This document shows, piece after piece, positions 3,425 to 44,028 of a stretch of 64,000 bases of DNA. Where the stretch lies: contig OY970192.1 of assembly GCA_963708135.1 (NCBI GenBank), forward strand, positions 4,736,001 through 4,800,000. The letters run 5' to 3'. The DNA comes from an uncultured Gemmatimonadales bacterium. Lineage in GTDB: Bacteria > Gemmatimonadota > Gemmatimonadetes > Longimicrobiales > RSA9. The position numbers and the translations under genes are program-made. A model generated the notes under the pieces. The model was not told the origin of the DNA. It searched no databases and saw nothing but the letters and a program-made list of their open reading frames with translations. Position 1 is the first letter of the stretch. Each line of letters begins with the position of its first letter.

Positions 3425-4666
3425 ATGGCATTTGGATTCGATCGGCCGGGCTCCGCGCCCGGCGCCGCGCTGGCCGAGCGGCTGAAGGCCGAGGGCCTGC
3501 GGCTGGGATTCGACGCGGTCGGGATCGCGGCGCTCGGGCCGAGCGACCACGCGGCGTTCTACCGCGCGTGGCTCGCGGCGGGACGCCATGGCGAGATGGC
3601 GTACCTGGCGCGGCCGGACGCGGTGGAGAAGCGGGCGAACCCGGCGCGGGCGTGGGGGCTGCGGTCCGCCGTCGTCGCCCTGCACGGCTATGCGCCGGAG
3701 GGCGACGATCCGGCCGGGGATCCCTCGCGCGGCGTGATCGCGCGCTACGCCCGCGGGCGGGATTACCACAGGGTGGTGAAGAAGCGGCTGCTCGCGCTGC
3801 TCGGCTGGCTGGAGGCGGAGCTCGGCCGTAGGCTGCCCGCGGCGCGCGCTTACGTCGACACGGGCCCCGTGCTCGAGCGCGAGCTGGCGCGGCGGGCCGG
3901 GCTCGGCTGGTTCGGCCGCAACACCATGCTCATCGACCCGCGGCGGGGGTCGTACCTCTTCATCGGCACGCTGCTGCTCGACCTGGAGCTTCCGCCGGAT
4001 CCGCCGTTCGAGGCGGACCGTTGCGGCACGTGCCGGGCGTGTCTGGACGCCTGCCCGACGGGCGCGCTGCTGGGCCGCAATGCGGCCGGCGCGCCGGTGA
4101 TGGATGCCACGCGCTGCATCTCCTACCTCACGATCGAGCAGCGCGGGCCGATCCCGGAGCAGCTGCGGCCGGCCATCCGTAACCGCGTGTACGGCTGCGA
4201 CATCTGCCAGGAATGTTGCCCATACACCCGTAAATTCTCACGACCGTCGTCCGAACCAGCGTTCGCGTCCCGCGGGCCGGGGGAAGCGCCGTTCGGCGTG
4301 CAGCTGGTGGCCGGCGCGTCACGGTCGCACCCGGGCACGCGGTCGCCTTCACTGATTGCGCTGCTCGAGATGTCCCTGGACGAGGCGGCGTGGGATTCGT
4401 TCTCGCGCGGCTCCGCGATACGGCGCTCCGGCAGGGCCGGATTCGCACGCAACGTGTGCGTCGGACTCGGCAACTGGGGCTCGCCAGAGGCCGTCGCCGT
4501 GCTCTCGCGGGCGTTATCCGACCCCGAACCGTTGGTGCGCGCGCACGCCGCCTGGGCACTCGGCAGAGTGGGCTCTGCCGAGGCCAGGTCAGCGCTGTCA
4601 GCGGCCGCGTCGGTGGAAACCGACGCGGCCGTGCTGGAGGAGTTGTCCGCGGCGATGGCCGCCTGA
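3425..4666 (+). CDS. queG: Epoxyqueuosine reductase, hybrid gene (host 5' part plus island-encoded 3' part from ~4213)
   Basis: ARYARGRDYH, YVDTGPVLER, CGTCRACLDACPT, CISYLTIE, GCDICQ and a HEAT-like tail. Confidence 0.93.
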   Translation: MAFGFDRPGSAPGAALAERLKAEGLRLGFDAVGIAALGPSDHAAFYRAWLAAGRHGEMAYLARPDAVEKRANPARAWGLRSAVVALHGYAPEGDDPAGDPSRGVIARYARGRDYHRVVKKRLLALLGWLEAELGRRLPAARAYVDTGPVLERELARRAGLGWFGRNTMLIDPRRGSYLFIGTLLLDLELPPDPPFEADRCGTCRACLDACPTGALLGRNAAGAPVMDATRCISYLTIEQRGPIPEQLRPAIRNRVYGCDICQECCPYTRKFSRPSSEPAFASRGPGEAPFGVQLVAGASRSHPGTRSPSLIALLEMSLDEAAWDSFSRGSAIRRSGRAGFARNVCVGLGNWGSPEAVAVLSRALSDPEPLVRAHAAWALGRVGSAEARSALSAAASVETDAAVLEELSAAMAA

Positions 4667-6357
4667 CGGTCGAGCGCGAAGAACTTCGGGTCGTTCGGCG
4701 CCGTGCGGAGCACAACAGCGGCCGACTTGTTGTTCGCGCGGAGCTTGCCGGGCACCGGTTCGACGATGACCTGCACGTCGTAGACCCAGTAGTCGAGCAG
4801 AATCTTCCGCTCCTCCTCACCCAGGCCCGGCCACGCGTCTGCGAGGTTGCGCGTCTCGCTGATGATGGTGGACAGGCGGTCCCACGCGTCTTCACGCGAC
4901 CGCGCGAACTTCTCCGCGTCCTTGAGCTCGGTGCGCGCAGCCGTCAGCTGCTGCTGGACAGCCCGCGCCTCCTTCTCGAACGCCTTGCTGTCGAAGTTCT
5001 CGTCGGCCGTGAGCACGGCCAGCGTGCGAGCGAGCTTGCTGTTCTGCCGCTCGAGGCGCTCGACCTCCTCCCTGGCCGACGCGACGGCCTCGTCCGCCTG
5101 CTTCCGGAACTCGTCGCGCTCCAGAATCGCCTGACGGACGAGGTCCTCGAACTCGGCGGAACCGCGCTCCGCGGCGATGAGGTCCTTGATGCCGTTCTCC
5201 AGTTCCTCCGCGTCCACGTACCAGACCTTGCAGCCGCACTCCATGAACCGCTGGTGCGCCTCCGCGTCCATGCGCTTCTTCGGCTTGGTGTGGACGTACG
5301 AGCGGGTGCGGCCCTGCGCCTCGGCGAGCCTGCCGCCGTGGTACTCGCCACCGCAATGGGCGCAGCCGGGCTTCAGGGGGAAGCCGCCCCGCTTCTTGCG
5401 CTTGGCGTTACGCGGCTGACGGTTCCGCTGCTCGAGCTCCTTCTCGACGGCCCTGAACAGGTCGACGTCCACGAACGGCTCCCACTTCGCCGTCACACGC
5501 ACGGGGTTCTTCTCGCCCGCGGGCGTGTACTCCACGAGGCCGATGAGGCCCGGGTTCGTGAGGAAGTTCTTGATGCTGCGGTGCCCGAGCTTGCCGCGGC
5601 GGGGACCGCGAACGCCGGCCTCTGTGAGCATGTCACCCACGGCGTCGAGGGATGCACCGGCGATGATACGGTTCGCGCACACCTCCCAGCGGGCCAGCAC
5701 CGGCTGGTCCGCAACCAGGACAGTCCCGCCGCCGCCGGGGGTGGACTGCTGTCCCTTGCTGAGAATCTTGCCGGTCCGCGTATCCATGCGCTTCGTGCCC
5801 CACGGTGCCGCGCCGCCCGTCCACCAACCCTGCGAGGCGTGATTGCCCATACCGCGCTTGACGTTGTTGGAGAGGTTGGTCGAGTAGATGGCCGCTGCGT
5901 ACGCGTAGAGCGCCATGGTGACGATGTCCGCCAGGTTGTCACCAACGCGGTTCACGGTGACGAAGTGGAGCTGCCACCCGGCCGACTCGAACTCCCCGTA
6001 CATGGACAGGAAGGCGAGGATGTCGGGCTTTCCGTCCTCGTCGAGGACGCGACCGAAACGCGAGGGGTCGTAGATATAGATGATTCCGGGGTCCGACTTG
6101 GGGCGCCGGTTCGCGCGGCAGAACTCACGGAGCTGCGAGAGCTGGTCGCGGTCGAACGTCGTACCCGTGCAGCTGTCGGCGAACCACCAGTTGTCGTCGA
6201 ACACGCCGAACTTGGACAGGATGGCTTCCTTCTGCTGGTCGTGTGAAGCGACCTGCCGCTCCTCACCCGTCGTGCTCTTCCGCGTGTAGAACAGGACTGC
6301 CGGGATGAGGCCGGCGGCAGCCGCAATGCGCTCGACCCAGGAACGAAACTTCTTCAT
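4123..6357 (-). CDS. Large serine recombinase (integrase) with a C-terminal extension antisense to queG
   Basis: YTRKST catalytic Ser motif, S-x-x-Q-Q, DSCTGT-x-x-DR, YDPSRFGR, recombinase domain (APWG), zinc ribbon CAHCG and coiled coil. Confidence 0.92.
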   Translation of the reverse strand: MKKFRSWVERIAAAAGLIPAVLFYTRKSTTGEERQVASHDQQKEAILSKFGVFDDNWWFADSCTGTTFDRDQLSQLREFCRANRRPKSDPGIIYIYDPSRFGRVLDEDGKPDILAFLSMYGEFESAGWQLHFVTVNRVGDNLADIVTMALYAYAAAIYSTNLSNNVKRGMGNHASQGWWTGGAAPWGTKRMDTRTGKILSKGQQSTPGGGGTVLVADQPVLARWEVCANRIIAGASLDAVGDMLTEAGVRGPRRGKLGHRSIKNFLTNPGLIGLVEYTPAGEKNPVRVTAKWEPFVDVDLFRAVEKELEQRNRQPRNAKRKKRGGFPLKPGCAHCGGEYHGGRLAEAQGRTRSYVHTKPKKRMDAEAHQRFMECGCKVWYVDAEELENGIKDLIAAERGSAEFEDLVRQAILERDEFRKQADEAVASAREEVERLERQNSKLARTLAVLTADENFDSKAFEKEARAVQQQLTAARTELKDAEKFARSREDAWDRLSTIISETRNLADAWPGLGEEERKILLDYWVYDVQVIVEPVPGKLRANNKSAAVVLRTAPNDPKFFALDRQAAIAADNSSSTAASVSTDAAADSADLASAEPTLPSAQAACARTNGSGSDNARESTATASGEPQLPSPTHTLRANPALPERRIAEPRENESHAASSRDISSSAISEGDRVPGCDRDAPATSCTPNGASPGPRDANAGSDDGRENLRVYGQHSWQMSQPYTRLRMAGRSCSGIGPRCSIVR
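4207..4231. other. attL (core CCAGGA 4207-4212 plus attP arm CACCCGT 4225-4231)
   Basis: Core shared with 43587-43592; the arm is the reverse complement of ACGGGTG at 43566-43572. Confidence 0.8.
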
Positions 6358-6387
6358 GTGGACCTGCCTTCTGGAGCCACGCTCCGT

Positions 6388-6609
6388 TTAGTCGCTCAGT
6401 GCCTTGAGCAGGTGGTTAGCGATGACCTCTGCTGAACGGCGCCGGAACACCCTGTCCTGCGCTTCGTCGTCCAGCCGGGCCTGAACTGCCTTTGCGCGCT
6501 TCTCGAGCGCCTTCGGCGAAATGAGGCCGGCGAGCCGGTGGGGCAGAGCCGAGCCACGGGGCTGCGCCGCAGCCCCCTGATTCAGCGTCGATTCTGCCTT
6601 CGTGCTCAT
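6388..6609 (-). CDS. Small basic protein upstream of the recombinase (possible directionality or accessory factor)
   Basis: 73-aa ATG ORF, co-oriented and 30 bp from the recombinase; function inferred from position. Confidence 0.5.
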   Translation of the reverse strand: MSTKAESTLNQGAAAQPRGSALPHRLAGLISPKALEKRAKAVQARLDDEAQDRVFRRRSAEVIANHLLKALSD

Positions 6610-6798
6610 TGCCTTCGGTCCGCCGTCCTGCTGTGCTCGGCTGGTCCCCGTGACCGCCGTATGAGCACTCTGTGGGCTTTTGAAGGCGACCCGGTAGTGG
6701 GGGGGTCAGGTCACGGCCGGGCGGGCCCCGGATGGCGCCGGGTTTCGGCTCTGCCCGACCACCGGACGCGGCAAGGAACGCCCGGGCGGCCAGCCGAA

Positions 6799-7917
6799 TC
6801 ACCGGACGTTCCTTCGGAGGCTGGCCGGCATGCAGATGTCGTCAGGACGCAGGGTGTAGCAGGTGCCGGGACGGGCTTCCACGTCCAGCAGTCGAAGCAG
6901 CGCGAGGTCAACAGCGGCCTGTATCCAGCCGAGTCCGGCGCGGGGTGTCACCTCGCTTGGCGCGTTCGCGACTGCCGCCGCCACGTACGCGAGTACCGAA
7001 TCAGGGACGGTGATGCCGAACCCGAATGCCTCGGCCGCCCTCACTGCCTTTACAGCGGCAGTCCGATAGATGGGTACCAGTTGGTGCGGCTCCAGGCGGC
7101 TGAACGGCACAATCATGGGGAACCGGCTCGCGAACTCCGGCAGGTAGCCGTACGCGACCAGGTCGCTTGGACCGGGGTCGGCGGGAAGTCCCTCGAACGC
7201 ACCGGCCGCGATGACCAGCATGTCGTCAGTCACGACCGAAACAGCTCGGCCCCGGTCCCCGTCCTCGGGGAAGCGAACCGGTACTCCTCCGGAGGCCAAG
7301 GTCAGCAGGCTGACCTGTTGACCGCGCTTGTGCTGTTTGCTGGTGCCCTGGGCATCACGGATTGCGACCTTGCAGGCTTCGTCCAACACGATGACGGCCC
7401 GCTGCATGACTTCGAGGTCGCGGTCGCACGTGGCGTAGAGTTCCGCCAACGCCGCATTCGCGTTGACGCCTGACCACCCGGCTTCTGAAGACGTACTGAT
7501 GTCCCATACGAGCGCCGGACACGACATGGCGCGCGCGAGTGCGACGAGAGTCGAGCTCTTACCCGAGCCGCTCGGTCCAATGACCAATGCCCGGTTACCG
7601 CCCCCCAGATGCACGTGCCGCGCACCGATGAGGCACAGTGCGTCCACGGCTGCGTCCTGACCGACAATGTCTGCGCGCAAGTGTCGGCGAATCTCACGGA
7701 ACGCAGCCGCCATAACGCCCGCCGGCGGCGGAGTGACTTCAGGTTCAGAGCTGTGCGTCACGACGGCTCCACATTCGCAACGCGGCCTTTCTGGCGCCCC
7801 TCGCACCGCGGGTCCGAGGCCGGCTGAACAGAAGGGACAGTTGACGGTCAGCGCCGATATGACCAGTTCGCGCTCATGGTTGCCGTCGGCCAACCAGTAC
7901 CTGCGTCGTGCACGCAT
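6799..7917 (-). CDS. ClpX-like AAA+ ATPase with N-terminal Zn finger
   Basis: CPFC..CEC, IVGQDAA, Walker A GPSGSGKS, Walker B IVLDE, QQVSLL, AGAFEGL and LPEFASRFP; AAGGAGG RBS before ATG 7917. Confidence 0.82.
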   Translation of the reverse strand: MRARRRYWLADGNHERELVISALTVNCPFCSAGLGPAVRGAPERPRCECGAVVTHSSEPEVTPPPAGVMAAAFREIRRHLRADIVGQDAAVDALCLIGARHVHLGGGNRALVIGPSGSGKSSTLVALARAMSCPALVWDISTSSEAGWSGVNANAALAELYATCDRDLEVMQRAVIVLDEACKVAIRDAQGTSKQHKRGQQVSLLTLASGGVPVRFPEDGDRGRAVSVVTDDMLVIAAGAFEGLPADPGPSDLVAYGYLPEFASRFPMIVPFSRLEPHQLVPIYRTAAVKAVRAAEAFGFGITVPDSVLAYVAAAVANAPSEVTPRAGLGWIQAAVDLALLRLLDVEARPGTCYTLRPDDICMPASLRRNVR

Positions 7918-7991
7918 GTAGCCTCCTTGTTGCGTGTCCGGCACAGGCTACCCGGCCGGATTCGCAGGCAGGAATCCGACCGGGCCCTAGT

Positions 7992-8410: not shown

Positions 8411-8797
8411 ATGACGATTGCGGAACTACTTCAGCGCTGGACCGACGAAGCTGCACAGCTACGTGAGCGGTACGGCATGGAGGCGGCGGCACGTCTGTGC
8501 GACGCGCACGTGCGTGAACTGACTGCAGCGCTGCACGCGCGCCAGGACGAACTGCTGACCATCGCAGCCGCTGCGGTGGAAACTCGCTACTCAACCCAAC
8601 ATCTCCGTGCGCTCATCGCAGAGGGCGCCATTCCGAATGCCGGTTCAAAGGGACGACCACGTATCCGCCGGGCCGACCTTCCTCCGCCGAAGAGCGTCTC
8701 CTCACGTGTGCGTGCGGCTGCGGCCGACAGCCGCCAGCGAAATCAGGCGAACCGAAAGAAGGTGTTCGATGCGAGCCGGATCGTACGCCGTCCATGA
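8411..8797 (+). CDS. Excisionase/AlpA-like HTH DNA-binding protein
   Basis: LLTIAAAAVETRYSTQHLRALIAEGAIP...RIRRADL pattern; GGAGGAG RBS; precedes the integrase. Confidence 0.72.
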   Translation: MTIAELLQRWTDEAAQLRERYGMEAAARLCDAHVRELTAALHARQDELLTIAAAAVETRYSTQHLRALIAEGAIPNAGSKGRPRIRRADLPPPKSVSSRVRAAAADSRQRNQANRKKVFDASRIVRRP

Positions 8798-8894
8798 CGT
8801 GACTTGGCGGCGGCCCGGAAGCGGGAGTAGGGTCGAGGTGCGGCTACGAATCAGCGTCGTCCGCAATGCCACTCAACCATAAGGACACCAGCAC

Positions 8895-10589
8895 ATGGCA
8901 CAGTCGAGTCCAACCACCCGTAAGCGTCGCGGTAAGGCGAAGCGCGCGAGCAAGGGCAGCAAGGTCGTCCGTGAGGTCACGTCCGGAGAGGTCGTCGTCC
9001 ACGTGAAGAAGCGCGTGGACGGTCGCGGATGGCTCTTCTACGCCGAATTCCTGCATCCCACGAAGGGTCGTCAGCGGCCGTCGCTGCAGACTGATGACCT
9101 GGAGGAGGCGGTGCGGAACGCGCAGGAGATCGCGGACGAGTTGGCCCTCCTGATCGAGAGCGGTTCCGTCGAGCACCTCGCCGCGATCAGCCAGTCGCGA
9201 GTAACGCTGGGACAGGTGTTCGACGAGTACCGACGGGAGCAGCTGCCGAACTACATCGAGAGTGACGGCCGTCCGAACGGTCACTGGGTCAACATGGACC
9301 GCGTTATCCGCGTCGCAGAGGGTATCTGGGGCCGCGATCAGGTCGTATGTGAACTGGGACCCTCCCAGGTCGCTCGGCTGAAGGCGGCACGGCTCGCGGG
9401 CGGTGTGACGATTGTCGGCCGCGTGCTGCCCGACCAGTTCGATCGGCTCATCATGCCGGCGGAGCCGACTGTCCTCAAGCCCTGCGGCCCGCGAACGGTG
9501 CGCGGCGAGATCGCGCTGCTGTCCGTGCTCTTCAACTGGGCCAGGCGCCACAAGGTGAAGGGGGGACGCGGTCGCAAGCTGCTCGGCGACAATCCACTGC
9601 ACGGCATCCCATTCAAAGCGGGGGTGGAGGAGCCGAAGCGCCCGCTGATGACCCAGAAGCGGTACGACGTCATGCTGCAATACGCTCCCGAAGTCGAAGC
9701 GATCACGCGGGGTGAAATCGAGTACCAGCGGCACTTCAAGGATGGTCGCGTGGTGCTATCGCGGAACCCGTCAGGCCGGCGCGGGCGGAAGTTCGCGAAG
9801 ATGCCTCGTGGCTTCCTGGTGACGCTGCTCATGCTGGCTCGTGGCACATGGCATCGCATCGAATCGCTGCGGGGGCTGAGAGTCGGCGACATCCTGCTGA
9901 CCCACGATCAGATGCGGCGCAAGCTGCTCGACCTCGGTTGGCCTGAAGAATGGGCTGACGAGTGGCCGTGGGGGGCGATCTACTGGAATCCCGAGTTCGA
10001 CAAGGAAGGCTACAGCCGCGTCGTGGCCATCTCGAAGCGGCTTCATGACCAGCTCGTTCTCTACCTGCGCGAACTCGGCACGATCGACCCCAACGCGTGG
10101 CTCTTCCCCTCGCCGTCCAAGCGTGGCAGGCATGTCAGCAATGGGCAGGTGTGGCGCTGGTTCCGCCGTATCGAGCGAGTGGCGGCAGCGAATGGCGCCG
10201 ACCTCCTTCCGCTGAAGTACGGGGCGTTCCACCCGTTCCGCCGCCAAGGCAGGAGCGAGAGGGCCGGCCATTTCGATGACAAACTCATCGCGCTGTGCGG
10301 CGGCTGGCAGCGTTTCAAGGACAGCCAGGAAGCTATGAACCAGGGCTACCTACAGTACAGCGCGCGGGCTCTGTACCTCTGCGTCGAGTTCGACGTGACG
10401 CGCGACGTTCCGGATGACGGCTGCGTGCCCGGCGTGAACATCACCGTGAACGCGCCGCCGGCGCCTCGCGCCGTCGAGGCCGAAACGGCCACGATAGGCG
10501 CACAGAATAGTCACACGCTCACGCCGGCGAACTCGATGGGGCCCCGCAAGATCGTGCCGCTCAAGACGTTGAACGAGCGGGCCTCATAA
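8895..10589 (+). CDS. Tyrosine recombinase / phage-type integrase
   Basis: N-terminal arm-binding-like RPSLQTDD, catalytic R (HRIESLRGLRVGDI), K (FDKEG), HPFRR, GGW and GYLQY. Confidence 0.85.
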   Translation: MAQSSPTTRKRRGKAKRASKGSKVVREVTSGEVVVHVKKRVDGRGWLFYAEFLHPTKGRQRPSLQTDDLEEAVRNAQEIADELALLIESGSVEHLAAISQSRVTLGQVFDEYRREQLPNYIESDGRPNGHWVNMDRVIRVAEGIWGRDQVVCELGPSQVARLKAARLAGGVTIVGRVLPDQFDRLIMPAEPTVLKPCGPRTVRGEIALLSVLFNWARRHKVKGGRGRKLLGDNPLHGIPFKAGVEEPKRPLMTQKRYDVMLQYAPEVEAITRGEIEYQRHFKDGRVVLSRNPSGRRGRKFAKMPRGFLVTLLMLARGTWHRIESLRGLRVGDILLTHDQMRRKLLDLGWPEEWADEWPWGAIYWNPEFDKEGYSRVVAISKRLHDQLVLYLRELGTIDPNAWLFPSPSKRGRHVSNGQVWRWFRRIERVAAANGADLLPLKYGAFHPFRRQGRSERAGHFDDKLIALCGGWQRFKDSQEAMNQGYLQYSARALYLCVEFDVTRDVPDDGCVPGVNITVNAPPAPRAVEAETATIGAQNSHTLTPANSMGPRKIVPLKTLNERAS

Positions 10590-10771
10590 ACGGCGACTAC
10601 GACGTCAACGGAATCACAAGAACGCTATAGGGGCAAGTTTTCCAGCAATCACGCCGAAATCCATCTCAGATCCGCGACGTTCCCCCTCCAGATCCGCACC
10701 TTTCCGCACTCCCGCAGTCACACACGTTGTCACACTAACTGCCTTCCCCGCACCTGCCTCGACCGCCCTCC

Positions 10772-11434
10772 ATGTCCATCACTCCGCAACAGCACGCGGT
10801 GTATCGAGCGGCCCTCGACGTCGCCGACAGCATCGACCCCAGCGGCCGCTTCCGCGCCATCCTGCATCTCCTCCGGTGCGCCGGTGGCGAGCAGATCGGC
10901 CGGATGCTGTCGCTGCGGCTCGACGCTGTCGGCTTCGTCAGGCCCTCGACTGCCAGGGCCCGCAGCAGCACCGCGCGAGGTCAGGAACTGGAACTGTTCA
11001 ATGGTTGCACAATCGTCCTGGACGAAGAAGCCGTCGCTGAACTGCATCTGTATGCTCGGCGCAGGTCTCGTCACGTGCGCATGCGCCTCGTCCAGCGACG
11101 GGAGCGCAGCTCGCTCTGGTATGCTCATGTGATCTGTGCAGGAGGCCATGCATTCACATCCCTCGGAACCCATGACCACGAGGTGGCGCGCCAGCGTGCG
11201 CGTGAGCGGCGCATGGAACTGGCCTGCACTGCCCGAAGCCGCGGATGCCGGTTTCTCTTTCCGGCCAGCTGGAAACGCGATACGCACGTGAGCGTGGGCG
11301 AACTCCGTCAGTGGATCAATGCCGCTGTGGGTCGCGGATCCCTGGGCTCGACTCGCGAGGCGTGTGAGCAGACTCGCCCGATACATCGCATCCAGGAGCG
11401 CCGGCGGCGGAAGGACAATGACCCACCCACCTGA
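10772..11434 (+). CDS. Degenerate integrase-like protein, paralogous in blocks to 8895-10589
   Basis: FLFPASWKRDTHVS resembles WLFPSPSKRGRHVS; WYAHV..SLGTHDHEVA resembles FYAEF..SLQTDDLEEA; no HxxR or catalytic Tyr region. Confidence 0.55.
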   Translation: MSITPQQHAVYRAALDVADSIDPSGRFRAILHLLRCAGGEQIGRMLSLRLDAVGFVRPSTARARSSTARGQELELFNGCTIVLDEEAVAELHLYARRRSRHVRMRLVQRRERSSLWYAHVICAGGHAFTSLGTHDHEVARQRARERRMELACTARSRGCRFLFPASWKRDTHVSVGELRQWINAAVGRGSLGSTREACEQTRPIHRIQERRRRKDNDPPT

Positions 11435-11536
11435 ACGTATCGCGCCGCGCAGCCGCGCAGCCGCGTGCCGGGGCGGATTCCGCGCAGCGGCCGACACCGG
11501 GTAGGAGTGTTCCCGGACTCGCAACCGGGAGAGATC

Positions 11537-11731
11537 ATGAGACACTGGGATCACGCGTCGTTCGAGCACGCACGCATCGGTGAGGACCTCGGCAGCGTCA
11601 TCGATGAGATCGTGGGGCTCTACGTCGAGCTCGAGGGGGCGAAGGTGGCAGAGCGGGCAACGCTGCGCCGGAAACTCGCGGCGGCCGGCTTTCGCCTGAA
11701 TCGTCTCGCCGCCCGACGGAGGACCGCATGA
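11537..11731 (+). CDS. Small hypothetical protein
   Basis: GGGAGAG RBS, ATG start, and a stop overlapping the xseA start (ATGA). Confidence 0.5.
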   Translation: MRHWDHASFEHARIGEDLGSVIDEIVGLYVELEGAKVAERATLRRKLAAAGFRLNRLAARRRTA

Positions 11732-13352: not shown

Positions 13353-13483
13353 GAGTCCCATGATCTGATTGCCAAGACTGGTTGGAGGGGTGGCCGGGCC
13401 TGCTGTCTGTGGAGGCAAGGCGCGGATATGCCCGCCTGCCGCCGGCCCGGCCGGCACCTCTTCCGACGAAGGAAGGTCGTACC

Positions 13484-14545: not shown

Positions 14546-14562
14546 CGGTCTCCCTGCCACCA

Positions 14563-16548: not shown

Positions 16549-16557
16549 GGGGGTTCT

Positions 16558-35036: not shown

Positions 35037-35941
35037 AAGCGCGCATCATTGAAGCACAAACTGACCTGTTCGAGGTCGGCGTCCTGTCGCAGACGGCCGA
35101 GGTCGAGAGCATTTCGATGGACCGGATCCTGGCTGATCCGTCGGGGCCTCCGCTCGTCGTTGTTGGTGGACTGCTGGGGGCCGAGCGCCTCGCCGACATG
35201 CGTAAGCTGTCGTCCGCGCTCGCACGGGCGGGGGTCGCGGTCATCGTCGTGCCGCCGTTCACGGATCTGGATGTCGGCCGCTACTTCGAGACGCCGGTCC
35301 AGCTGGGAGTCCGACGTCGTACCGCGGAGCCGGTTGCCCGCGTCAACGAGGGAGTGCTCGAGGAGGTGCTCGGCGGAAGGGTGAAGGTCCGCTCAGACCA
35401 CTTCGTCGACACGGCTCTCGGCGCAGGCGTGCTCGCCGTGGATGCCCAGGGCAAACCCGTGCTCATCCGGTACCAGGCGACCAACACGGCCGGGCCGGTG
35501 TTCTTCTCCGCACTCCAGTTGCTCACCTACACGGCGCTGACCGACGAGGCGCATCGCCAGGCACTCCTCGGCCACCTCTTGGCGTGGACGCCGACCGTCG
35601 CGACGGAGGCCCTGGAGGCCGCCCGGCAGCCGTCGAGCCCGCCGAGGGCCGAGGCGGTGGGCGAAGGGGTGCTCGTCCTCGTGGCGCTTCTTCTCGCGGC
35701 CGGGGGCGGGCAGGCGGCGGAGCAGCTGCGGTCTCGAGCCGGGACTCTCCTTGGCGCGGACCTCAGCGCTACTGACGCCGCACGCGCCGTGGAGGAGCTC
35801 GCGCGTCGGGGCCTGCTGGCCGCCGATGCACCGGCACCGAGCGATCGCGGGGCCCTCGTCCGGTTTCTCGAGCAGCGCGGGATGCACCCGTACCTGCGTG
35901 AGCTTGGGCCCCTGCTCGCTTCCGAGGGGACGACCACATGA
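35033..35941 (+). CDS. Hypothetical protein with a C-terminal wHTH-like segment
   Basis: ATGA-coupled on both sides. Confidence 0.7.
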   Translation: MKARIIEAQTDLFEVGVLSQTAEVESISMDRILADPSGPPLVVVGGLLGAERLADMRKLSSALARAGVAVIVVPPFTDLDVGRYFETPVQLGVRRRTAEPVARVNEGVLEEVLGGRVKVRSDHFVDTALGAGVLAVDAQGKPVLIRYQATNTAGPVFFSALQLLTYTALTDEAHRQALLGHLLAWTPTVATEALEAARQPSSPPRAEAVGEGVLVLVALLLAAGGGQAAEQLRSRAGTLLGADLSATDAARAVEELARRGLLAADAPAPSDRGALVRFLEQRGMHPYLRELGPLLASEGTTT

Positions 35942-37077
35942 AGAGCATCGAGCTGGCTCGCGCACTCGCCGCGGCGATGAGCCTGCGGCTTCCCGGCACC
36001 GTCGGGAAGATCGCAAACAAGATGCGGTACATCGACTCGAAGGCCCCGCTCTTCGTGCGTGGCGGCATCATCCGCAGCATCGAGTCGCGCCGGTTCGATC
36101 GCGTCTACGCCGTTGGCGTCTCCTCCAAGAGCCGGAGCATGCCCGCCTTGGGCGGCATCCTCTATGGAGCCGCGGCGCTCCGCCACGACATCGTCGTGAC
36201 CGGCAACCAGGTGACGGAGGGTTTCCAGGACAGCCGGGTCAACATCAACGACATGAACTTTCTCGACGCCTCCGAGCGACTGGTATGGAAGGAGTACATC
36301 CTCGTCTACCAGCTCCTGACGGACCTGCTGGATTCGGACACAAAGCCGGATGTCATCTTCGTCAACATCCCGCTCCTGGTCCCACGTGCCGAGCAGAGCC
36401 TCAGCCTCGCCGAGCCCGACGTCGAGGGGGAGTGGCACGAGCTCATCGAGGTCATGGAGGCGTTCTGGCAGCGCTTCCTGCCGTCGATCTACCCGAACGA
36501 CCCGAACGGGCCGTTCCTCGTCTCGCTCCAGTCGCGCCGCGACCTCAACGCCGCTGTCTTGAACGCGTTGCGCGAGAAGGGCCTGGCGGGTTCGCCCGAG
36601 GCGATCAGCAGTGAGGCGCTGGACCTCGTGCAGAGCGAGTGGGTGCAGCTGCGGCGGGTCGGCATTCTTCGCTTTCTACGTGGTGCCCTACGTGCAGGGC
36701 ATCGGACCGCCGCCTACTACTACGAGGCGCTGGGGCGCCAGATGAAGCGCTTCGAGCCTCGAACGGTCGCTAACCACGGCCTTATCGGCTTCCACATTCA
36801 AGTGGGCCTCCGAACTCCGATCTGGAAGATCGAGACCGTCGGTGCTCCCGGGCAATGGGATTCCGAGGCACTCGACAAGCTGGCCAGCGTCACCGCCTTC
36901 CTGACCCTGAACGACAACCCGCGGATGAAACCGCTGCCGCTCTGGTATGCCGAAGAGCTCGTGAAGATGCCACGCGAGGTCCTGTCCAACTACCTGCGTT
37001 CAACCTTGGGCATGCTCAAGGACCGCGCCGTTGATCGAGCCTGGCTCGAGGGCGTTAACACCATGGATGAGGAGTGA
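35938..37077 (+). CDS. NurA-like protein with substituted catalytic aspartates
   Basis: Directly upstream of HerA; VYAVGVSS in place of AVDGS, DVIFVNIPL in place of DGPL; P.PLWYAEELVK tail. Confidence 0.65.
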   Translation: MKSIELARALAAAMSLRLPGTVGKIANKMRYIDSKAPLFVRGGIIRSIESRRFDRVYAVGVSSKSRSMPALGGILYGAAALRHDIVVTGNQVTEGFQDSRVNINDMNFLDASERLVWKEYILVYQLLTDLLDSDTKPDVIFVNIPLLVPRAEQSLSLAEPDVEGEWHELIEVMEAFWQRFLPSIYPNDPNGPFLVSLQSRRDLNAAVLNALREKGLAGSPEAISSEALDLVQSEWVQLRRVGILRFLRGALRAGHRTAAYYYEALGRQMKRFEPRTVANHGLIGFHIQVGLRTPIWKIETVGAPGQWDSEALDKLASVTAFLTLNDNPRMKPLPLWYAEELVKMPREVLSNYLRSTLGMLKDRAVDRAWLEGVNTMDEE

Positions 37078-38774
37078 GCATGTTCGAAGATGACGACAAC
37101 TACATTGGCAAGCTGGTTGGCAACACCGGAGAGCCCAACAAGCTGACAATCGCGCTACGTACGAGCTTTTCGGCACGGCGCGGCGAGTTCGTGCGGGTGG
37201 CCCACCAGGAGCGGGAGTCTGAGTCGCAGATCGACGTGCTGGGCCGCGTCGTGGGGCTCTCGCGGTCGAACATCCTGTTCAGTCCGGCGCTCGGCGAAGG
37301 GATCAGTGAAGTCGAGCTGCTCCCACAGTCGCGGCTCTCGGGCGAGACCGTCTACGCGACGCTCGAACTGGTCGGCTACAAGGACCCGTATACCGGTGAG
37401 ATCCGTATCCCACGACGTCCCCTGACGCCAGGGACCAAGGTCTACGGGGTCGACTACGCCTTCCTCACGAGCTTCTACGAATTCTCAGAGGATACCAGCA
37501 TCCACCTGGGGAACCTCGTCGGCTACGAGAAAGGCGAGAACATCGTCCCGGTCTTCCTCGACGCTAACACGCTGGTGACTGAGCACCTCGCGGTGCTTGC
37601 AATGACGGGCTCGGGAAAGAGCTACACGGTCGGGCGCGTGATCGAGCGGCTCGTCTCGCAGCTCAATGCGTCAGTCGTGGTCTTCGACCCGCATGGCGAG
37701 TACGGCAAGGCCTTCCGAACCGGCAAGCTCAATTTCAACGACCGGCTCGACAAAGTGGAGGATCCTCGGGATCGGCAGAAGCTGGCGGAGATTCAGGATT
37801 CGCTCCAGCAGTTGCAGGATCGCGGGGGCGGCATCAAGGTCTACACGCCGCAGCTGCGTAGCTTCGACGAGAAGTACGCGGGGAAGAACACGCGTCTGGC
37901 GCTTCAGCTCGACCACTTCGACGTGGACGAGTTCTCGGGTGTGCTTCCTGGCCTGACGGAGCCGCAGCAGCGCGTGCTCGACGTCGCGCTGCGCTACTGG
38001 AAGGAGAACGTCGACGAGCCTCGCGACATTCAGGAGCTCTTCGGAGTCCTCGACGATCTCGATCGCCTGAAGGAGTGGGTGACGGAGTCCGGCAGCCAGG
38101 GCGAGGCGAACGCGCTGCGCGGAGGAAGTGCCAACATCGCCGCCATCCGTCTTCGGCGCATGATCAACGAAGCCCAGAGCTTCTACTCGCGCGCGGCTGG
38201 TGACCCCTTCGACGTGTACGAGATGGTCGGCGACGATAACGCCGAGGCCGGACGGCTCTGCATCATCGACCTCCAAGGGCTCTCGAACACGGCAAGGCAG
38301 GTCATCGTCGCGCTCATCTCGAGCGAGCTCATGAAGGCGGCGGCCGACAAGCAGCGTCCGACCCGACCGGTGTTCATCGTCTACGAGGAAGGGCACAACT
38401 TTGCGCCCGCCGGCGAAGCGGCGATCTCGAAGAACATCATCAAGCGCATCGCGGCCGAGGGCCGAAAGTTCGGCGTCGGATTCGCGATCGTCAGCCAGCG
38501 GCCGAGCAAGCTCGACTCCGACGTGACGAGTCAGTGCAACACCATCGTCGCGATGCGCATCAAGAACCCCGACGACCAGCGGTTCATCCAGAAAACCTCC
38601 GACTACTTCTCTGCAGCGGATCTGGCGGAGCTTCCGACGCTATCGACCGGCGAGGCACTGATCTGCGGACGCGCGATCATCGCGCCGCTCGTCGTGAAGG
38701 TCGGCACCAAGGCGCTCATTCACGGCGGTGAGTCACCACGCGTGTGCGAGCGGTGGGGGCGGGCGAGCGGATGA
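37074..38774 (+). CDS. herA: HerA-family ATPase/translocase
   Basis: HAS-barrel N-terminus, HLAVLAMTGSGKS, FDPHGEY, YEEGHNFAP, EGRKFGVG..IVSQRPS and SQCNT. Confidence 0.92.
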   Translation: MSMFEDDDNYIGKLVGNTGEPNKLTIALRTSFSARRGEFVRVAHQERESESQIDVLGRVVGLSRSNILFSPALGEGISEVELLPQSRLSGETVYATLELVGYKDPYTGEIRIPRRPLTPGTKVYGVDYAFLTSFYEFSEDTSIHLGNLVGYEKGENIVPVFLDANTLVTEHLAVLAMTGSGKSYTVGRVIERLVSQLNASVVVFDPHGEYGKAFRTGKLNFNDRLDKVEDPRDRQKLAEIQDSLQQLQDRGGGIKVYTPQLRSFDEKYAGKNTRLALQLDHFDVDEFSGVLPGLTEPQQRVLDVALRYWKENVDEPRDIQELFGVLDDLDRLKEWVTESGSQGEANALRGGSANIAAIRLRRMINEAQSFYSRAAGDPFDVYEMVGDDNAEAGRLCIIDLQGLSNTARQVIVALISSELMKAAADKQRPTRPVFIVYEEGHNFAPAGEAAISKNIIKRIAAEGRKFGVGFAIVSQRPSKLDSDVTSQCNTIVAMRIKNPDDQRFIQKTSDYFSAADLAELPTLSTGEALICGRAIIAPLVVKVGTKALIHGGESPRVCERWGRASG

Positions 38775-39397
38775 TGCGCGGCCGCTCGACATCACCGTCG
38801 GACTTGGTGTTCGGCGGGATCACCAACCGCGACCTGATGGTCGAGCATTTCCCGATGCTGCTGTCTTCGGGGATTCCGGACATGGGGCTTACGGTTCACT
38901 CACACTTCCTCACGTTGCTGGCGAGCGCGGGGCAGTTGCAGGGCTACTCTGCCGTGGCGGAGTGCCCAATCTGTTGGACGCGCGACAATGGTCTTGGAGA
39001 CGTCCGCGTGGACTCGGTGTGGTTCGAGAAGCAATCGGGCGAAGCCTCGCTCGCGTTTGAATTCGAACGGTTCGAGCGCGGCGACAAAGGGAAGCTGCGG
39101 GGCAAGGTCGAGAACCTTGCAGTCGCGTCGACCGCGGCCCCGAGTCTGAAGCTGTGTGTCCTGATCTACTGGGTGCGCAGCGGCTCGGCTCCGCGGAGCA
39201 TGGACGCGATCATCGCGAGCTACCGCGACGGCTTCCGGCGACGTGGCATTGTTGTGGCCCCGGCGCGCACGCCGTTGATGATCATCAAGTGCGTGATGCG
39301 CCCGGTACCCAATTCCGACCGGCTGGTGTTCGGCGAGTTCTTGCGCGACGAGCGCAACGAGAGGCTTGCGCTGGGCAGGGCAGAGCCGTGGCGCTGA
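38771..39397 (+). CDS. Putative PD-(D/E)xK-fold nuclease
   Basis: GY....E, RVDSVW ... LAFEFE and K..NL pattern of a restriction-like fold. Confidence 0.6.
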   Translation: MMRGRSTSPSDLVFGGITNRDLMVEHFPMLLSSGIPDMGLTVHSHFLTLLASAGQLQGYSAVAECPICWTRDNGLGDVRVDSVWFEKQSGEASLAFEFERFERGDKGKLRGKVENLAVASTAAPSLKLCVLIYWVRSGSAPRSMDAIIASYRDGFRRRGIVVAPARTPLMIIKCVMRPVPNSDRLVFGEFLRDERNERLALGRAEPWR

Positions 39398-40968
39398 TCC
39401 TATTCCGTGGCAAACCCGGCGAGGAGCTGGGCGATCGGTTTCGCTTGCTGGCCGAGCTCGGCAAAGGGAGCTTCGGCGAGGTGTGGCAGGCACGTAGACT
39501 GAAGGATGGTGCCACGGTCGCGATCAAGATCCCGAAGGACCAGGAGAAGGGCGAGGAGGTGCTTCGCAAGGAGTCGGACATCATCAGGGACATTCACCAT
39601 CCGAACATCGTTCGCGTCCAAGGCTTCCACAACATCAGCGAGCTTTTCGTGATAGAGATGGAGTTCGTCAATGGCTATGACTTGGCGAAGGTCCTCGATA
39701 GCGTCAGTACCCGGGCGCCGCTCACCTTCGAACAAATGCTCGAATGGACGCTGCAGATTCTCGACGGTTTGGCTGCCGTCCACGCCGCGAACATATCGCA
39801 CAACGATCTGAAGCCGCAGAACATCCTCGTCGATAAGGCGTCCGGGGTAGCGAAGATCACTGATTTCGGATTGAGCCGCCGGCTCGAGGATGTCTGGGTG
39901 TGGACCAAGCGCCACGGCACGGAGGCGTACATGGCCCCTGAGGTCGCTCTCGAGGGGAAGCGCGCTCGGGACGTGACCGACATCTACTCGATCGGCGTCC
40001 TACTCTACGAGATGGCCACGGGACGGCTGCCGTATTCTACCCCGCATCAACTGCTCACCGGGGTGCAGATCGCAAAGCCTCGTGAGGTCAACCGCGATGT
40101 GCCCGCCGACCTGGAGGACGTGATCCTTCGTGCGATGGCGCGGCGGCCCGAGAGCCGTTTTCAGACCTGCGGATCGATGCGCGCCGCCGTGCAAACATGC
40201 CTTGTCCGGCTGCGCGCCGACGCGGCAACGGCAGCCATGCCGGCTCGCTCGGAGCCCAGCCAGCTCGGCTTCCGGCCGCCCTCGTCCAGCCCGCTTTACT
40301 ACCTCGAGCTTGCTAAGCAACGACTGGCCGCGGGCGATGCTGAGGGCGCCCTGGGGGCGGCGGAGGCGGCTGTGGATCGAAGCGACGGCCATCCGCAGTA
40401 CCTGCGAATGCTCGGCGGCATCTGCTTACGTTTGGGTTACGACCGCAAAGCAGCCGAAGCATACGAGCAGCTGCTCGCCGCCTTCGATCGGGGCTACCCG
40501 GTGGAAGGACATCTACGAAGGGACGTGTTCGAGCGACTTGGTCAGCTGTACATCAACCTTCAGCGGTACGGAGAAGCCGTAGCGATCTACGAGCGCCTCG
40601 TAGACGCCCTTGACCGGCCATTCTCCCGCTTCCGACTGGCTGTCGCTGTGGGTCTCGATGGCGACTATGGGCGCGCGATTCAGTTGCTCGAATCCGTTCG
40701 AGCAGAGCGGCCAGACGCCGTCGTCGTCTACTCCAAGCTCGGGTGGGCCCACGCGCTCAACGGGAACGATCGTGTCGCGCTCAGCTTCTACAACCAGGCC
40801 CTGGCCCGGGACGCCTTTGACCTGTTCAGCCTCTTCGAGCTCGGGAAGTACTACTACATGCTTGGTAGCCGCCGACGCGCTCGGGAGTACTTCGAGCGGG
40901 TCATGGACGCAGACAAGCAGGGGGGCTACGCCGATCGCGTGCGTGAGCTCACTAACTCCAGTGCGTGA
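39388..40968 (+). CDS. Ser/Thr kinase with C-terminal TPR repeats
   Basis: LGKGSFGEV, VAIK, HNDLKPQN, TDFG, GTEAYMAPE and TPR-like helices. Confidence 0.92.
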   Translation: MALILFRGKPGEELGDRFRLLAELGKGSFGEVWQARRLKDGATVAIKIPKDQEKGEEVLRKESDIIRDIHHPNIVRVQGFHNISELFVIEMEFVNGYDLAKVLDSVSTRAPLTFEQMLEWTLQILDGLAAVHAANISHNDLKPQNILVDKASGVAKITDFGLSRRLEDVWVWTKRHGTEAYMAPEVALEGKRARDVTDIYSIGVLLYEMATGRLPYSTPHQLLTGVQIAKPREVNRDVPADLEDVILRAMARRPESRFQTCGSMRAAVQTCLVRLRADAATAAMPARSEPSQLGFRPPSSSPLYYLELAKQRLAAGDAEGALGAAEAAVDRSDGHPQYLRMLGGICLRLGYDRKAAEAYEQLLAAFDRGYPVEGHLRRDVFERLGQLYINLQRYGEAVAIYERLVDALDRPFSRFRLAVAVGLDGDYGRAIQLLESVRAERPDAVVVYSKLGWAHALNGNDRVALSFYNQALARDAFDLFSLFELGKYYYMLGSRRRAREYFERVMDADKQGGYADRVRELTNSSA

Positions 40969-41095: not shown

Positions 41096-43375
41096 TCAGC
41101 GGAGACGTGCCCCAACTTCTTGGGCAGCTGCCTCCACCTCAGCGACCACTTCCCTGAGGAAGAGGTTTCGGTCGGGTGACGGGACGACATCCGGGACAGG
41201 TGCTGCCGGCTCGTAAATGTCGTCACCGATGATCCGCGCACGCACGAAGGTTGAGCCAGTGCCGTGCTTGTCGTAGGCGTCTCGCCATTCGTTCGCGCGA
41301 TCCCGCCACACACGGCGCGTTGACAGCTCCATCAGTCGGCTCGCGATGTTCTCGGCGATGGCGTCGTACGTGGCCTGCTCCTCGTCTTCAGTAGGTTCCG
41401 GCCCCTCCCATTCAAGCGGGTTCTGGACGAAAACGTAGATCTTCTGGGTCAGCTCGCGCCGGAGATCAGCAACGGGCTTCAACGTGTCGTATTCGTCCGC
41501 CATCCCGGTGGCAAGCCGCCTGCTCAACGCCTTGACGCGGGTCCAGTGTTCCTTGGTCATAGCCACGCCAGACTCCAGGCCCAGCCGCTGCCGCCATGCA
41601 TGCTGGAACGCTTCGGCTGCGCTGCGGATCCCGAGTACGAGATCCATTCTATCATATACCGGTTGAGCAGATGCCGGCTGCGGACGATCTACCACGTCTT
41701 CGATCGCTTGCAGCAGGCCGCGAAGTTGCTTTACCGTTCGCCTTCCTGCGGCGGTATTCGTTGCCAGTGGCTCGTGTAGGCCGCCTAGGAAGAAGCGTGC
41801 ACCATCTAGGCGCTTTCGCACTGCACGCTCCGCATGCGCACCCAGTTCCTCGCCGAACGCAGCCAGCACGTTCTCGGCCGACGCCAGAACGTGTTGAGCC
41901 TTTGCATCAGCGTTAGGGAGGTTGTCACCTTTCACCTCATCGAAATGGGTGAACGCGACGATGAGCTTACGCGCGTTGCCAGTGGATATGATTTCGCGCA
42001 TTGCCGCGACGGGCGCGGCCTGCATCGGCTGCGTTGCGTTGTCGATCAACAAGACGGCGTCGACCACTTCAATGCGACGGCTCACTCCTGTTGAGACAGA
42101 GGATGCTGATGTCGGAGTGTGGCCGAGTCCTTCACCGTCCAGGATGACGAGCTTCGGAGGACTCTGCCCCTCCAGCCATGTGGGTGTGAAGGGGCCGGAT
42201 ACCCGAACTCCGTTGACCAGGGGAGTCAGGAGGCGACCGTAGTAGGGCGCGTAGTTGCTGGAGAACCTGGTGATCGCCTTCAGGAAGTCACGGCGAGCAT
42301 CGGTATCCCATTCGGCGTGCCATGAAAGCGGCCAGCCTTGCTTTGTCTTCTTGACCGTACCCTGCGGTAGGAGTTCGAAGCGCTTCTCGATCTCGTCCAT
42401 CAGAGCGTCGGCAACAGCGTGGAACTCCTCGTCGTCCCGGAGCAGATTATCGAGCTCTTCCTCGAACAGTTCTTCGAGGACACGCTCGTCCCCTTCATCG
42501 GCAGCGGCAAGCTCGTCCCGGAGGCGCTCTCCGAGGCGCTGTGAGACACTTCGCAGCTGAGACACAACGCGCTGGAGCAGTTCTGCGGTTACGTCCATGT
42601 CAATGTCGCCGAGTTCCTCCGCGGTAAAGAGCTCGTCGTCGCCCTGGTCGTCTTCGTCCTCGTCATCAAGGCCGAAGGCGACGCTCTTCACGCTCGGCCC
42701 CGTCCCGAGGACGTAGCTGAAGCGATACCGCTGGTTCACATGGTTCAAGAGGCGCCGCAGGATCGTTGCGTCGTCCGCGCCCTTTGATGCGGCCAGTACA
42801 GCCGCCGAAATGCATTCATTCAGGTACTCTCGGATCTCGTCGGAAGTCGCAAATGTGACAATCGCCCGCCATGGCCCGTCGTCGACGATGATCTCGGTAT
42901 CGTGAATGGTCGTCTTTGCCGTTGAGGTTGACGGAAAGCGCTCCGTCGCCGGGTCGGTTCCGATCAGTTGCCGCACGACAGTTGTCTTGCCGGCTCCCGT
43001 CGTGCCCAACAGCAGCACACGACGATACCCGTCAGGCGAGGAAGGCGGCAGAGCAACCGCTTCGTCGCGGATCCGAGCAAAGTCGACCTCCTCGGGCACC
43101 ATCTTATCGAAAAAGATGTTGACGACTCTCTGGTCGAAACGCCGTTCGGCCTCCGGACGGGCGGCTGCGTCATGGAACAGCGTGTCCCGGAGGAGTTCGT
43201 TGAGTTGATCGCGCAGTCGCCCTGCCTCGGCCACGTCGCGGGTCCCGAGACCTTTGCGCACACGAACGCCGGGCTTTCCTGTCGCCTCATCTCGGCGTAC
43301 AGGATGCCGGAAGATCACGGTGTAGCCGGACCGGCCCTGAGTCTGGCTCAGACTGGCGGTGTACCGCTTGCTCAT
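41096..43375 (-). CDS. Dynamin-like GTPase with an N-terminal integrase-arm-like domain
   Basis: G1 GTTGAGKT, G2 STAKTT, G3 DGEG, G4 THFD; N-terminal RVRKGLGTRD..EA; GGAGG RBS. Confidence 0.72.
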   Translation of the reverse strand: MSKRYTASLSQTQGRSGYTVIFRHPVRRDEATGKPGVRVRKGLGTRDVAEAGRLRDQLNELLRDTLFHDAAARPEAERRFDQRVVNIFFDKMVPEEVDFARIRDEAVALPPSSPDGYRRVLLLGTTGAGKTTVVRQLIGTDPATERFPSTSTAKTTIHDTEIIVDDGPWRAIVTFATSDEIREYLNECISAAVLAASKGADDATILRRLLNHVNQRYRFSYVLGTGPSVKSVAFGLDDEDEDDQGDDELFTAEELGDIDMDVTAELLQRVVSQLRSVSQRLGERLRDELAAADEGDERVLEELFEEELDNLLRDDEEFHAVADALMDEIEKRFELLPQGTVKKTKQGWPLSWHAEWDTDARRDFLKAITRFSSNYAPYYGRLLTPLVNGVRVSGPFTPTWLEGQSPPKLVILDGEGLGHTPTSASSVSTGVSRRIEVVDAVLLIDNATQPMQAAPVAAMREIISTGNARKLIVAFTHFDEVKGDNLPNADAKAQHVLASAENVLAAFGEELGAHAERAVRKRLDGARFFLGGLHEPLATNTAAGRRTVKQLRGLLQAIEDVVDRPQPASAQPVYDRMDLVLGIRSAAEAFQHAWRQRLGLESGVAMTKEHWTRVKALSRRLATGMADEYDTLKPVADLRRELTQKIYVFVQNPLEWEGPEPTEDEEQATYDAIAENIASRLMELSTRRVWRDRANEWRDAYDKHGTGSTFVRARIIGDDIYEPAAPVPDVVPSPDRNLFLREVVAEVEAAAQEVGARLR

Positions 43376-43565
43376 TTGCCGCCTCCACGTTGTTCCTTTG
43401 TTGTTCCGACGGAAGAGTAAGGCCGTAGCAGCCGGCACGCAAGAGTCTCGGGAACAACCAAGGAACAACGGAAGCGCCGGCGCAGCTGTCTCACCCAGCT
43501 TGTGTCAGAATCCGATCCGTGTTCTAAGGTGTTGTCAATCCGCGCCTTCCGAGCTTGATCTCAAA

Positions 43566-43592
43566 ACGGGTGAGTCGATACAGGACCCAGGA
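43566..43592. other. attR (arm ACGGGTG 43566-43572 plus core CCAGGA 43587-43592)
   Basis: See attL; QueG similarity begins exactly at the core. Confidence 0.8.
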
Positions 43593-44028
43593 GGTGTGTC
43601 CGTGGAATTCGGCGAAAATCGTTCAGCTCACGGCTGGCCTGGACTTTTTCCCGCGGGCCGGGGAACCGCCGGATTCGGATTCCGCGCCTGCGGCGCTGGA
43701 TTCGGATTCGGATTCGTTGCGGGCGGGGCAGGACGCGGCGCGCGGCGTCGTGCTGCCGGGTACGGATGCGCCATCGCTCGTTCGGCTCATGCGGATGACG
43801 CGGGAGGAGTGGGACCGGTGGACGCGCGGGTCGGCGATCCGGCGCGCCGGCTACGAGGGGTTCCGGCGCAACGTGGCGGTGGCGCTTGGGAACTGGCTGG
43901 CATCCGGGGCTGAGGCACCGGAGGATGCGGTGGCGGTGCTCCGGGATGCTCTCGAGGACGAGAGCGAGCTGGTGCGGGAGCACGCGGCGTGGGCGCTGCG
44001 GCGCGCGGGTCGATCCGGCGGCGGCTGA
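43587..44028 (+). pseudogene. queG: Displaced native 3' end of queG
   Basis: QEVCPWN...PGTDAPSL...RGSAIRRAGYEGFRRNVAVALGNW...LVREHAAWAL, homologous to 4207-4666. Confidence 0.9.

Follow-up and report, generated by a model that had tools for sequence, protein, structure and literature searches.

A predicted serine-integrase island in queG of an uncultured Gemmatimonadota bacterium carries a divergent replacement for the 3′ end of its target gene

Serine integrases are usually described as disrupting genes or inserting between them, and repair of the target is regarded as a speciality of tyrosine integrases. Phage 21 and e14 at Escherichia coli icd, and islands in tRNA and tmRNA genes, supply a substitute 3′ end and leave the displaced fragment at their far end; these elements use tyrosine integrases, a long identical core, and a shorter, near-identical substitute. 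In the serine family, SCCmec (CcrAB) at staphylococcal rlmH (orfX) spares its gene, replaces the last few codons, and occurs in tandem arrays with decayed remnants. For SPbeta (SprA, spsM), skin (SpoIVCA, sigK), Anabaena XisF (fdxN), and Listeria A118 (comK), the bacterial attachment site attB lies in a gene that is inactivated until excision. Here we describe a predicted large serine recombinase (LSR) island inserted in queG, the gene for epoxyqueuosine reductase, in a 64,000-nt stretch of DNA (the window) from an uncultured Gemmatimonadales bacterium (assembly GCA_963708135.1, contig OY970192.1, positions 4,736,001 to 4,800,000 of the forward strand). A search of the literature on queG or epoxyqueuosine reductase as an integrase target or attB found nothing relevant.

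The queG island resembles the icd and tRNA-gene type in that a substitute 3′ end rides on the element, the gene is kept whole, and the displaced fragment lies at the far end, but its recombinase is an LSR, and the protein sequence of its substitute shares just 57% identity with the native end where the two can be aligned. With SCCmec at rlmH, the nearest serine-family case of gene-sparing insertion, it shares a serine-family island in the 3′ part of a housekeeping gene, a spared reading frame, and tandem or decayed copies. It differs from SCCmec in that 152 codons, the whole HEAT-repeat domain, are replaced with only 5–6 bp of identity, and in that the recombinase gene abuts the attachment (att) site and overlaps the end of the replaced gene antisense. 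Like the SPbeta, skin, XisF, and A118 systems it pairs an LSR with an attB that falls within a gene for a protein, and its att sites are short and centred on a dinucleotide, but unlike them it keeps its target gene whole. An element-borne 3′ end that restores the target gene is well known for tyrosine-integrase islands (PMC4383910; PMC12884075). In Mx8 IntP/IntX, a tyrosine integrase open reading frame (ORF) spans attP, the attachment site of the element, and integration alters its 3′ end (PMC6070905); SSV-type archaeal integrases are likewise tyrosine enzymes with an attP-containing ORF (PMC7253208). The likeness is a frame that crosses the att site and a 3′ end that changes on integration, and the difference is that those att sites lie in functional coding sequence and those enzymes are tyrosine recombinases, whereas the queG system has an LSR whose conserved body is separated from the att site by a stretch of ~150 codons antisense to a host-gene substitute. 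If our reading of the locus holds, a serine-integrase lineage would keep its target alive by a whole-domain swap with almost no identity at the joint, an exception to the usual rule.

Anatomy of the island and of the restored queG

We interpret positions 4207–43592 of the window as an integrated genomic island that was mobilised by the LSR encoded at its left end and that restored queG with an island-borne tail, and we give this interpretation a probability of about 0.85. The anatomy is read directly from the DNA (Table 1). Two CCAGGA cores bound the element and are the sole block common to both junctions. Because the left and right flanks rejoin in frame at this shared core, yielding CDICQEVCPWN, the form found in relatives, the island measures 39,380 bp. 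GC content is ~72–73% in the host DNA and drops to 63–69% between roughly 4.2 and 44 kb. The layout is that of a target-restoring island, in which the island-proximal junction remakes a full-length queG and the displaced queG fragment stands at the distal junction. The usual form of such islands, a tyrosine integrase with a long identical core, is not matched here: the junction has an LSR, and identity extends over no more than 6 bp.

The hybrid queG ORF contains YGCDICQECCPYT, so that its second Cys motif reads CDICQECCPYT, while the frame ending at 44028 reads ...TQEVCPWNSAKIV... and then continues as a QueG HEAT tail. CCAGGA spans the last base of Cys261, the whole of Gln262, and two bases of Glu263. 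The original prediction had placed the core inside the CDICQEVCP motif and proposed that EVCPWN becomes ECCPYT with the Cys ligand kept; both junctions read in this way, and the last motif Cys is retained in both reads. In the hybrid this final Cys of the second Fe-S motif is island-encoded and has an extra Cys beside it (ECCP); we take the motif cysteines of QueG to be its Fe-S ligands. The hybrid protein passes the equivalog TIGR00276 (323.8 bits, cut-off 200) and contains the domains QueG_DUF1730 (residues 70–146), Fer4_16 (199–267), and HEAT_2 (334–410), and its host and island parts both align to B. subtilis QueG 5d08. On these matches the hybrid gene appears intact and is predicted to encode an epoxyqueuosine reductase, which would retain enzymatic activity. 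The replacement is long and divergent, as had been proposed: its 152 codons are homologous to the native end, with 57% identity over 87 aa, and the first ~40 residues are unalignable.

Rejoining the two island ends rebuilds an attP in which ACGGGTG of the left arm and CACCCGT (4225–4231) of the right arm each lie 15 nt from a CA dinucleotide (43588–43589 in attR, 4208–4209 in attL). The arms form a symmetric run of 7 nt (P = 0.00125, from 20,000 shuffles of the arms), which arises only with CA as the centre; five other centres gave runs of ≤3. The inverted arms centred on the core CA that were described in the original prediction are thus present at equal distance on each side. The first ~25 nt of the replacement tail, including CACCCGT, double as the attP right (P′) arm, and the first codons of LSR-linked tails keep synonymous choices unusual for this GC content (CCA/CCG-TAY, CGT, AAA/AAG, TTC, TCA), a pattern that fits a putative DNA-level constraint on the P′ arm.

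The same arm recurs in other genomes, designated here by G numbers. Comparison of 11 attR-type junctions from 8 genomes, at each of which an island end gives way to a queG tail, located ACGGGT at the identical 15-nt offset in five, from the window, G006, G354, G217, and G399, and degenerate versions of the arm in the remaining six. The four genomes other than the window that have this left arm at their queG junctions come from two other families. Across the genomes compared, the block of attL/attR identity invariably has its left edge at C/CAGGA, and hosts with TGT as the preceding Cys codon share only CAGGA onward. Arm symmetry and this common left edge together point to crossover at CA. Independent islands with homologous LSRs in G354, G217, and G399 have the same attL/attR layout with the ACGGGT arm at the same offset, in agreement with this reading of the att sites.

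The LSR matches PF00239 (Resolvase; residues 22–177, 37.4 bits against a cut-off of 23.3) and PF07508 (Recombinase; residues 229–311, 32.8 bits against 21.1). Residues Y24, R26, K27, and S28, as well as C332, C335, and C376, are invariant in 21 LSR homologues, and S28 is by its position the likely serine nucleophile of an enzyme that would be catalytically competent. An AlphaFold model is confident over residues 1–564; besides the catalytic and recombinase domains it displays a Cys-rich ribbon and a long coiled coil, with short strands at 338–382 followed by long paired helices at 401–503. The match to the XisF equivalog reaches 28.6 bits, with a cut-off of 375. Homologues in the protein database form 51 clusters at 42–98% identity, from Gemmatimonadota wherever the source is named, and the 98%-identical protein is in the metagenome record P0005. 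The complete recombinase/attP/attB set put forward in the original prediction therefore gains support from domains and fold for the recombinase, from symmetry for attP, and from recurrence in other genomes, all of it at the level of sequence and model. Directly upstream of the LSR gene lies a 73-aa ORF with a homologue at the equivalent place in G009 (39% identical along its whole length) and no Pfam or PHROG match; by position it is a candidate regulator or directionality factor. A promoter and terminator scan of 3300–6800 found nothing.

Recombinase lineage and queG chimerism in relatives

A first sample comprised 41 genomes of the same family or order, G000 included, and the LSR was searched for in 73 family genomes and in a 401-genome phylum sample. 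All 41 first-sample genomes contain queG. The original prediction relied on relatives having a contiguous queG at this junction, and many do, with a native-type tail (e.g., G011, G001, G041, and G087); the upstream neighbour gene of queG is also conserved in many relatives. In G012, a homologue of the window's downstream gene 45049–45849, 73% identical, stands directly behind a contiguous queG. The tail of G012 is among the closest relatives of the displaced tail of the window, which groups with the tails of G012, G011, and G020 (98% SH-aLRT). From gene order and tail similarity, the G012 layout represents the probable empty-site configuration. The queG of G012 (L026, G012:C2 ~15811–15840) also has a 1-base insertion immediately left of the att core (GACATTC for GACATC) that shifts the frame and could be a sequencing error or a scar.

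An LSR body was found in 5 of the 73 family genomes (G000, G054, G009, where it is frameshifted, G068, and G007) and in 6 of the 401 phylum-sample genomes (G000, G344, G217, G354, G399, and G372, where it is fragmented). In all ten genomes that hold an LSR body, the gene is convergent to, and directly behind, a queG tail. This constant placement indicates a Gemmatimonadota LSR lineage dedicated to queG. The cargo differs between queG islands. G354 encodes, in addition, a second LSR paralogue with 34–36% identity (L079, G354:C1:4354794–4359416) that is not beside queG and could serve as an outgroup for dating the origin of the stop-less architecture described below.

The distribution of the LSR also bears on who performed the integration. 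The island encodes a weak tyrosine-recombinase-like protein with a phrog_1 "integrase" match of 60.8 bits, and target-restoring islands are typical of tyrosine integrases (PMC4383910). Integration by this protein, or by homologous recombination between duplicated queG ends, with the LSR as cargo, is nonetheless very improbable. attL and attR share only 6 bp, the protein falls below the Pfam cut-off, and it has no homologue in the compared parts of other queG islands, a comparison of partial coverage; the constant junction neighbour in 10/10 genomes is the LSR, not the tyrosine-recombinase-like gene.

Searches with tblastn located 3′ remnants of the LSR, corresponding to its last 40–60 conserved codons, directly behind queG in G067, G046, G085, and G073, and a profile search adds G071, with a match reaching into the LSR body. 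The queG genes of the family are chimeric. Tallies of tails throughout (the antisense-frame, tree, tail-type, and 741-pair counts) include the unpublished genomes G015, G016, G019, and G076, and the named examples are independent of these four. Over 741 genome pairs, conservation of the tail is typically 9 points below that of the N-terminal part (median −9). The window's replacement tail is 90% identical to the tail of G083, against 66% for the N-terminal part (pair G000/G083), and the tail exceeds the N-terminal part by 14 points for G000/G053 and by 10 points for G000/G079; G083 and G003, of one genus, have different tail types. More than 20 relatives have uninterrupted queG ORFs with island-type tails, many of them with no native tail nearby. 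Together the remnants and the chimerism indicate that many apparently ordinary queG genes of the family carry an element-derived tail.

Additional copies consisting of the queG 3′ end only occur in 9 of the 41 genomes: G000, G005, G006 (three copies), G008, G012, G018, G020, G028, and G032. In G005, G006, G008, and G018, the few-kb intervals between tails contain unrelated cargo, including glycosidases, Fic, LarA, and KaiC-like proteins, transposases, and RHS, and no LSR; these arrays look like tandem accretion followed by decay. In G006 (L024, G006:C189, 3371–14900), three full tails and one partial tail follow a single queG in tandem, separated by 2–5 kb of unrelated, integrase-free cargo. 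We considered and rejected a rule by which type-B tails would be island-borne and type-A tails native: all three G006 tails are type A, island-borne ones included, a type-B tail lies behind an attR-type junction in G070, and the distal fragment in G012 is type B.

These observations are compatible with the following model. In a circular element, the LSR gene and the substitute tail would directly adjoin one side of attP, and the LSR would recombine attP (~46 bp or more) with an attB located in queG where TGC-CAG-GAG encodes part of the second Fe-S motif. Integration would join the host's 261 codons in frame to the island HEAT tail, the host promoter would drive the hybrid, and the last Fe-S Cys and the whole HEAT tail of the product would be element-encoded. 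The native tail would be left at attR, promoterless and silent, and kept for exact restoration on excision. Later insertions could use the regenerated site and build tandem islands, and subsequent deletions would remove cargo and integrase, leaving the chimeric queG genes, orphan tails, and integrase stubs of many genomes. Under this model, the C-terminal third of a housekeeping enzyme would be a horizontally exchanged, element-borne module across a bacterial family, by a route for core-gene domain replacement that will escape annotation pipelines; queG will often go uncalled where the integrase ORF overlaps it. Several genomes would also yield natural recombinase/attP/attB sets that are backed by comparison.

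A soil-metagenome contig (X1), the only one that spans the site, bridges attL without differences and has the integrated form, and other metagenome runs contain short related pieces only. One alternative is a fossil island, integrated by the LSR in the past, with excision now lost and the hybrid queG simply a host gene; the IS4-type transposase and possible nested module inside the island, the fact that most relatives hold decayed remnants only, and the lack of any excised or empty form in the metagenome contigs fit such a history. We regard it as doubtful, in that the LSR ORF is uninterrupted and keeps its invariant catalytic residues, neither att arm is damaged, no stop interrupts the displaced native tail, and a 98%-identical LSR is recorded in P0005. 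Present-day mobility of the integrated LSR island seems plausible.

Several observations weigh against the interpretation of the locus as an LSR-mobilised, target-restoring island. The rebuilt attB has weak symmetry (longest run 3, P = 0.42; 16/40 matches, P = 0.04), and with only 6 bp shared at this locus, the position of the crossover depends on symmetry and on other genomes. No zinc-ribbon Pfam model matched the LSR, and this feature derives from the structural model and the conserved cysteines. The weak tyrosine-recombinase-like gene is a second recombinase-like gene on the same island. In G012, a type-B tail fragment lies 31 kb away and is unexplained by simple integration. The three G006 tails are each other's closest relatives, and island-borne tails are hence not always foreign-looking; their clustering points to gene conversion in this lineage, or to capture on repeated occasions. 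Finally, neither an empty attB nor a circular junction was present in the metagenome contigs, which cannot show rare forms and are uninformative either way.

A stop-less integrase frame antisense to the queG tail

Two points go beyond the original prediction: the integrase ORF lacks a stop of its own and runs antisense over the whole replacement tail, and the phenomenon is lineage-wide. The LSR ORF covers 4123–6357 on the minus strand. Its conserved body extends to residue 563 (4667), within a few bases of the queG stop, and past this residue the frame runs antisense through the entire substitute tail, across attL, and into host DNA. The extension and queG frames share wobble positions, and queG fixes the extension sequence apart from wobble bases. 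Disorder is predicted for the extension (pLDDT <50 over residues 565–744).

Among the 51 database homologues of the LSR, 46 extend as far as the att core read in antisense (...G[HQ]T[SA]), and the other five are fragments or partial records; with the window included, 47 of 47 complete LSR ORFs are open to the core. The stop falls exactly at the core in 25, within 10 codons in 11, within 11–40 codons in nine, and later in two. A host Cys codon TGT produces the stop TGA, the complement of the crossover CA plus one host base. Circularisation leaves the frame without this stop, and translation would continue, giving for the window a protein of 737 aa as compared with 744 aa when integrated, and the last 28 residues of the attL form differ from the 21 of the circular form.

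Such a frame may be a passive by-product. Wobble-sharing antisense frames are often open in a genome of ~70% GC, and the extension would then be tolerated, functionless, and unselected. The sequence of the extension is dictated by queG except at wobble bases, its predicted disorder fits a lack of function, and the same frame is open in 7 of 24 tails that are not island-type (type A, 4/15; others, 3/9) and in 11 of the 16 island-type tails that lack an LSR. Codon usage, given the protein sequence of each tail, yields a probability of 0.32–0.88 per tail that the frame is open. Against a passive origin, all 47 complete ORFs, which fall into 29 clusters at a 70% identity limit and 20 at a 60% limit, are open to the core and contain 191 sites one wobble change away from a stop; in no LSR homologue does the frame end in the gap directly behind the conserved body, where sequence is unconstrained; and the decayed LSR copy in G068 has acquired a stop in the antisense frame. 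In a DNA-level examination of stop avoidance in nine LSR homologues, the joint probability of an open frame was 0.01 for the seven cases beside uninterrupted LSR ORFs. This is real but moderate evidence, drawn from sequence comparison, that the LSR frame may be kept open beyond chance, and we place the passive explanation slightly short of even odds.

A stronger proposal, which we offer tentatively, is that the LSR and substitute tail form an obligate two-strand coding module, with the stop deliberately absent, the disordered C-terminal extension of ~150–180 aa translated, and the frame selected to stay open up to the crossover. If this were true, about half of the lineage would obtain its LSR stop by integration, with TG from the crossover and A from the host TGT, and the integrase C-terminus, possibly along with its stability or its expression against convergent queG transcription, would report the integrated versus the free state. 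A conserved antisense overlap of 450–540 nt between two real genes is rare and is testable for dual coding and for integration-state regulation.

Island cargo and flanking DNA

The listed cargo spans 6799–43468 (Table 1) and consists mainly of what appear from family matches to be restriction- or defence-type genes. Pfam and PHROG searches of the island found no phage structural, packaging, or transfer/conjugation genes; we accordingly rejected a prophage or conjugative element in favour of a genomic island with defence-type cargo. PADLOC matches are generic (methyltransferase, specificity-subunit, kinase, and HerA models). No defence system is assigned to the cargo: matches to models of MADS (methylation-associated defence system) are all far under the equivalog cut-offs (MAD2, 126.9 vs. 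720 bits; MAD5, 82.3 vs. 400; MAD6, 165.4 vs. 460).

Table 1 Features of the queG island and its junctions (window coordinates)
Feature	Position	Strand	Remarks
Hybrid queG, 413 aa	3425..4666	+	Codons 1–261 host-derived, 262–413 island-derived
LSR ORF 3′ extension, residues 564–744	4123..4666	-	Antisense to replacement tail; stop 4123–4125 in host DNA
attL core CCAGGA	4207..4212		Putative crossover CA at 4208–4209, within Gln262 of CDICQE(V/C)CP
Island-borne replacement queG 3′ end	4208..4666	+	152 codons and stop; HEAT-repeat tail
LSR conserved body, residues 1–563	4667..6357	-	PF00239, PF07508; 51 homologue clusters
73-aa ORF	6388..6609	-	Directly upstream of LSR
ClpX-like AAA ATPase	6799–7944	-	
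Weak tyrosine-recombinase-like protein	8895–10589		phrog_1, 60.8 bits; PF00589, 19 bits, below cut-off
XseA-like exonuclease	11728–13119		
AAA_25 primase/helicase-like protein	13382–14545		
IS4-type transposase	16571–17740	-	DDE_Tnp_1 and DUF4372
Two methyltransferase/specificity-subunit pairs	18168–24681		
Ser/Thr kinases	25115–26269, 39154–40968		
Six-gene operon ending in HerA-type ATPase	28997–38774		
790-aa protein	41096–43468	-	No family match
attP left (P) arm	43566..43586		Right end of island; ACGGGTG at 43566–43572
attR core CCAGGA	43587..43592		
Displaced native queG 3′ end	43588..44028	+	146 codons and stop; frame still open

The IS4-type transposase is probably a secondary insertion, and beside it lies a 323-aa ORF without a family match (15700–16671, minus strand). 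The tyrosine-recombinase-like, XseA-like, and AAA_25 genes are flanked by a 22-nt imperfect direct repeat (82% identity) and may form a nested module at 8684–15080; the repeat copies at 8684 and 15059 were rejected as element ends, being too weak to claim.

Just past the displaced queG tail, the region 44000–52000 has a GC content of 0.67–0.71, compared with 0.71–0.74 for the core, and might be older island material; it encodes large proteins, of which three lack an NCBIfam match (44228–47566). In the host DNA upstream of queG, an asparagine-synthase-like gene (41–1882, plus strand) has a weak lasso-peptide cyclase match (189.6 bits, cut-off 525). Host DNA on the other side of the island contains a very large ORF of 2734 aa at 53161–61365 on the minus strand.

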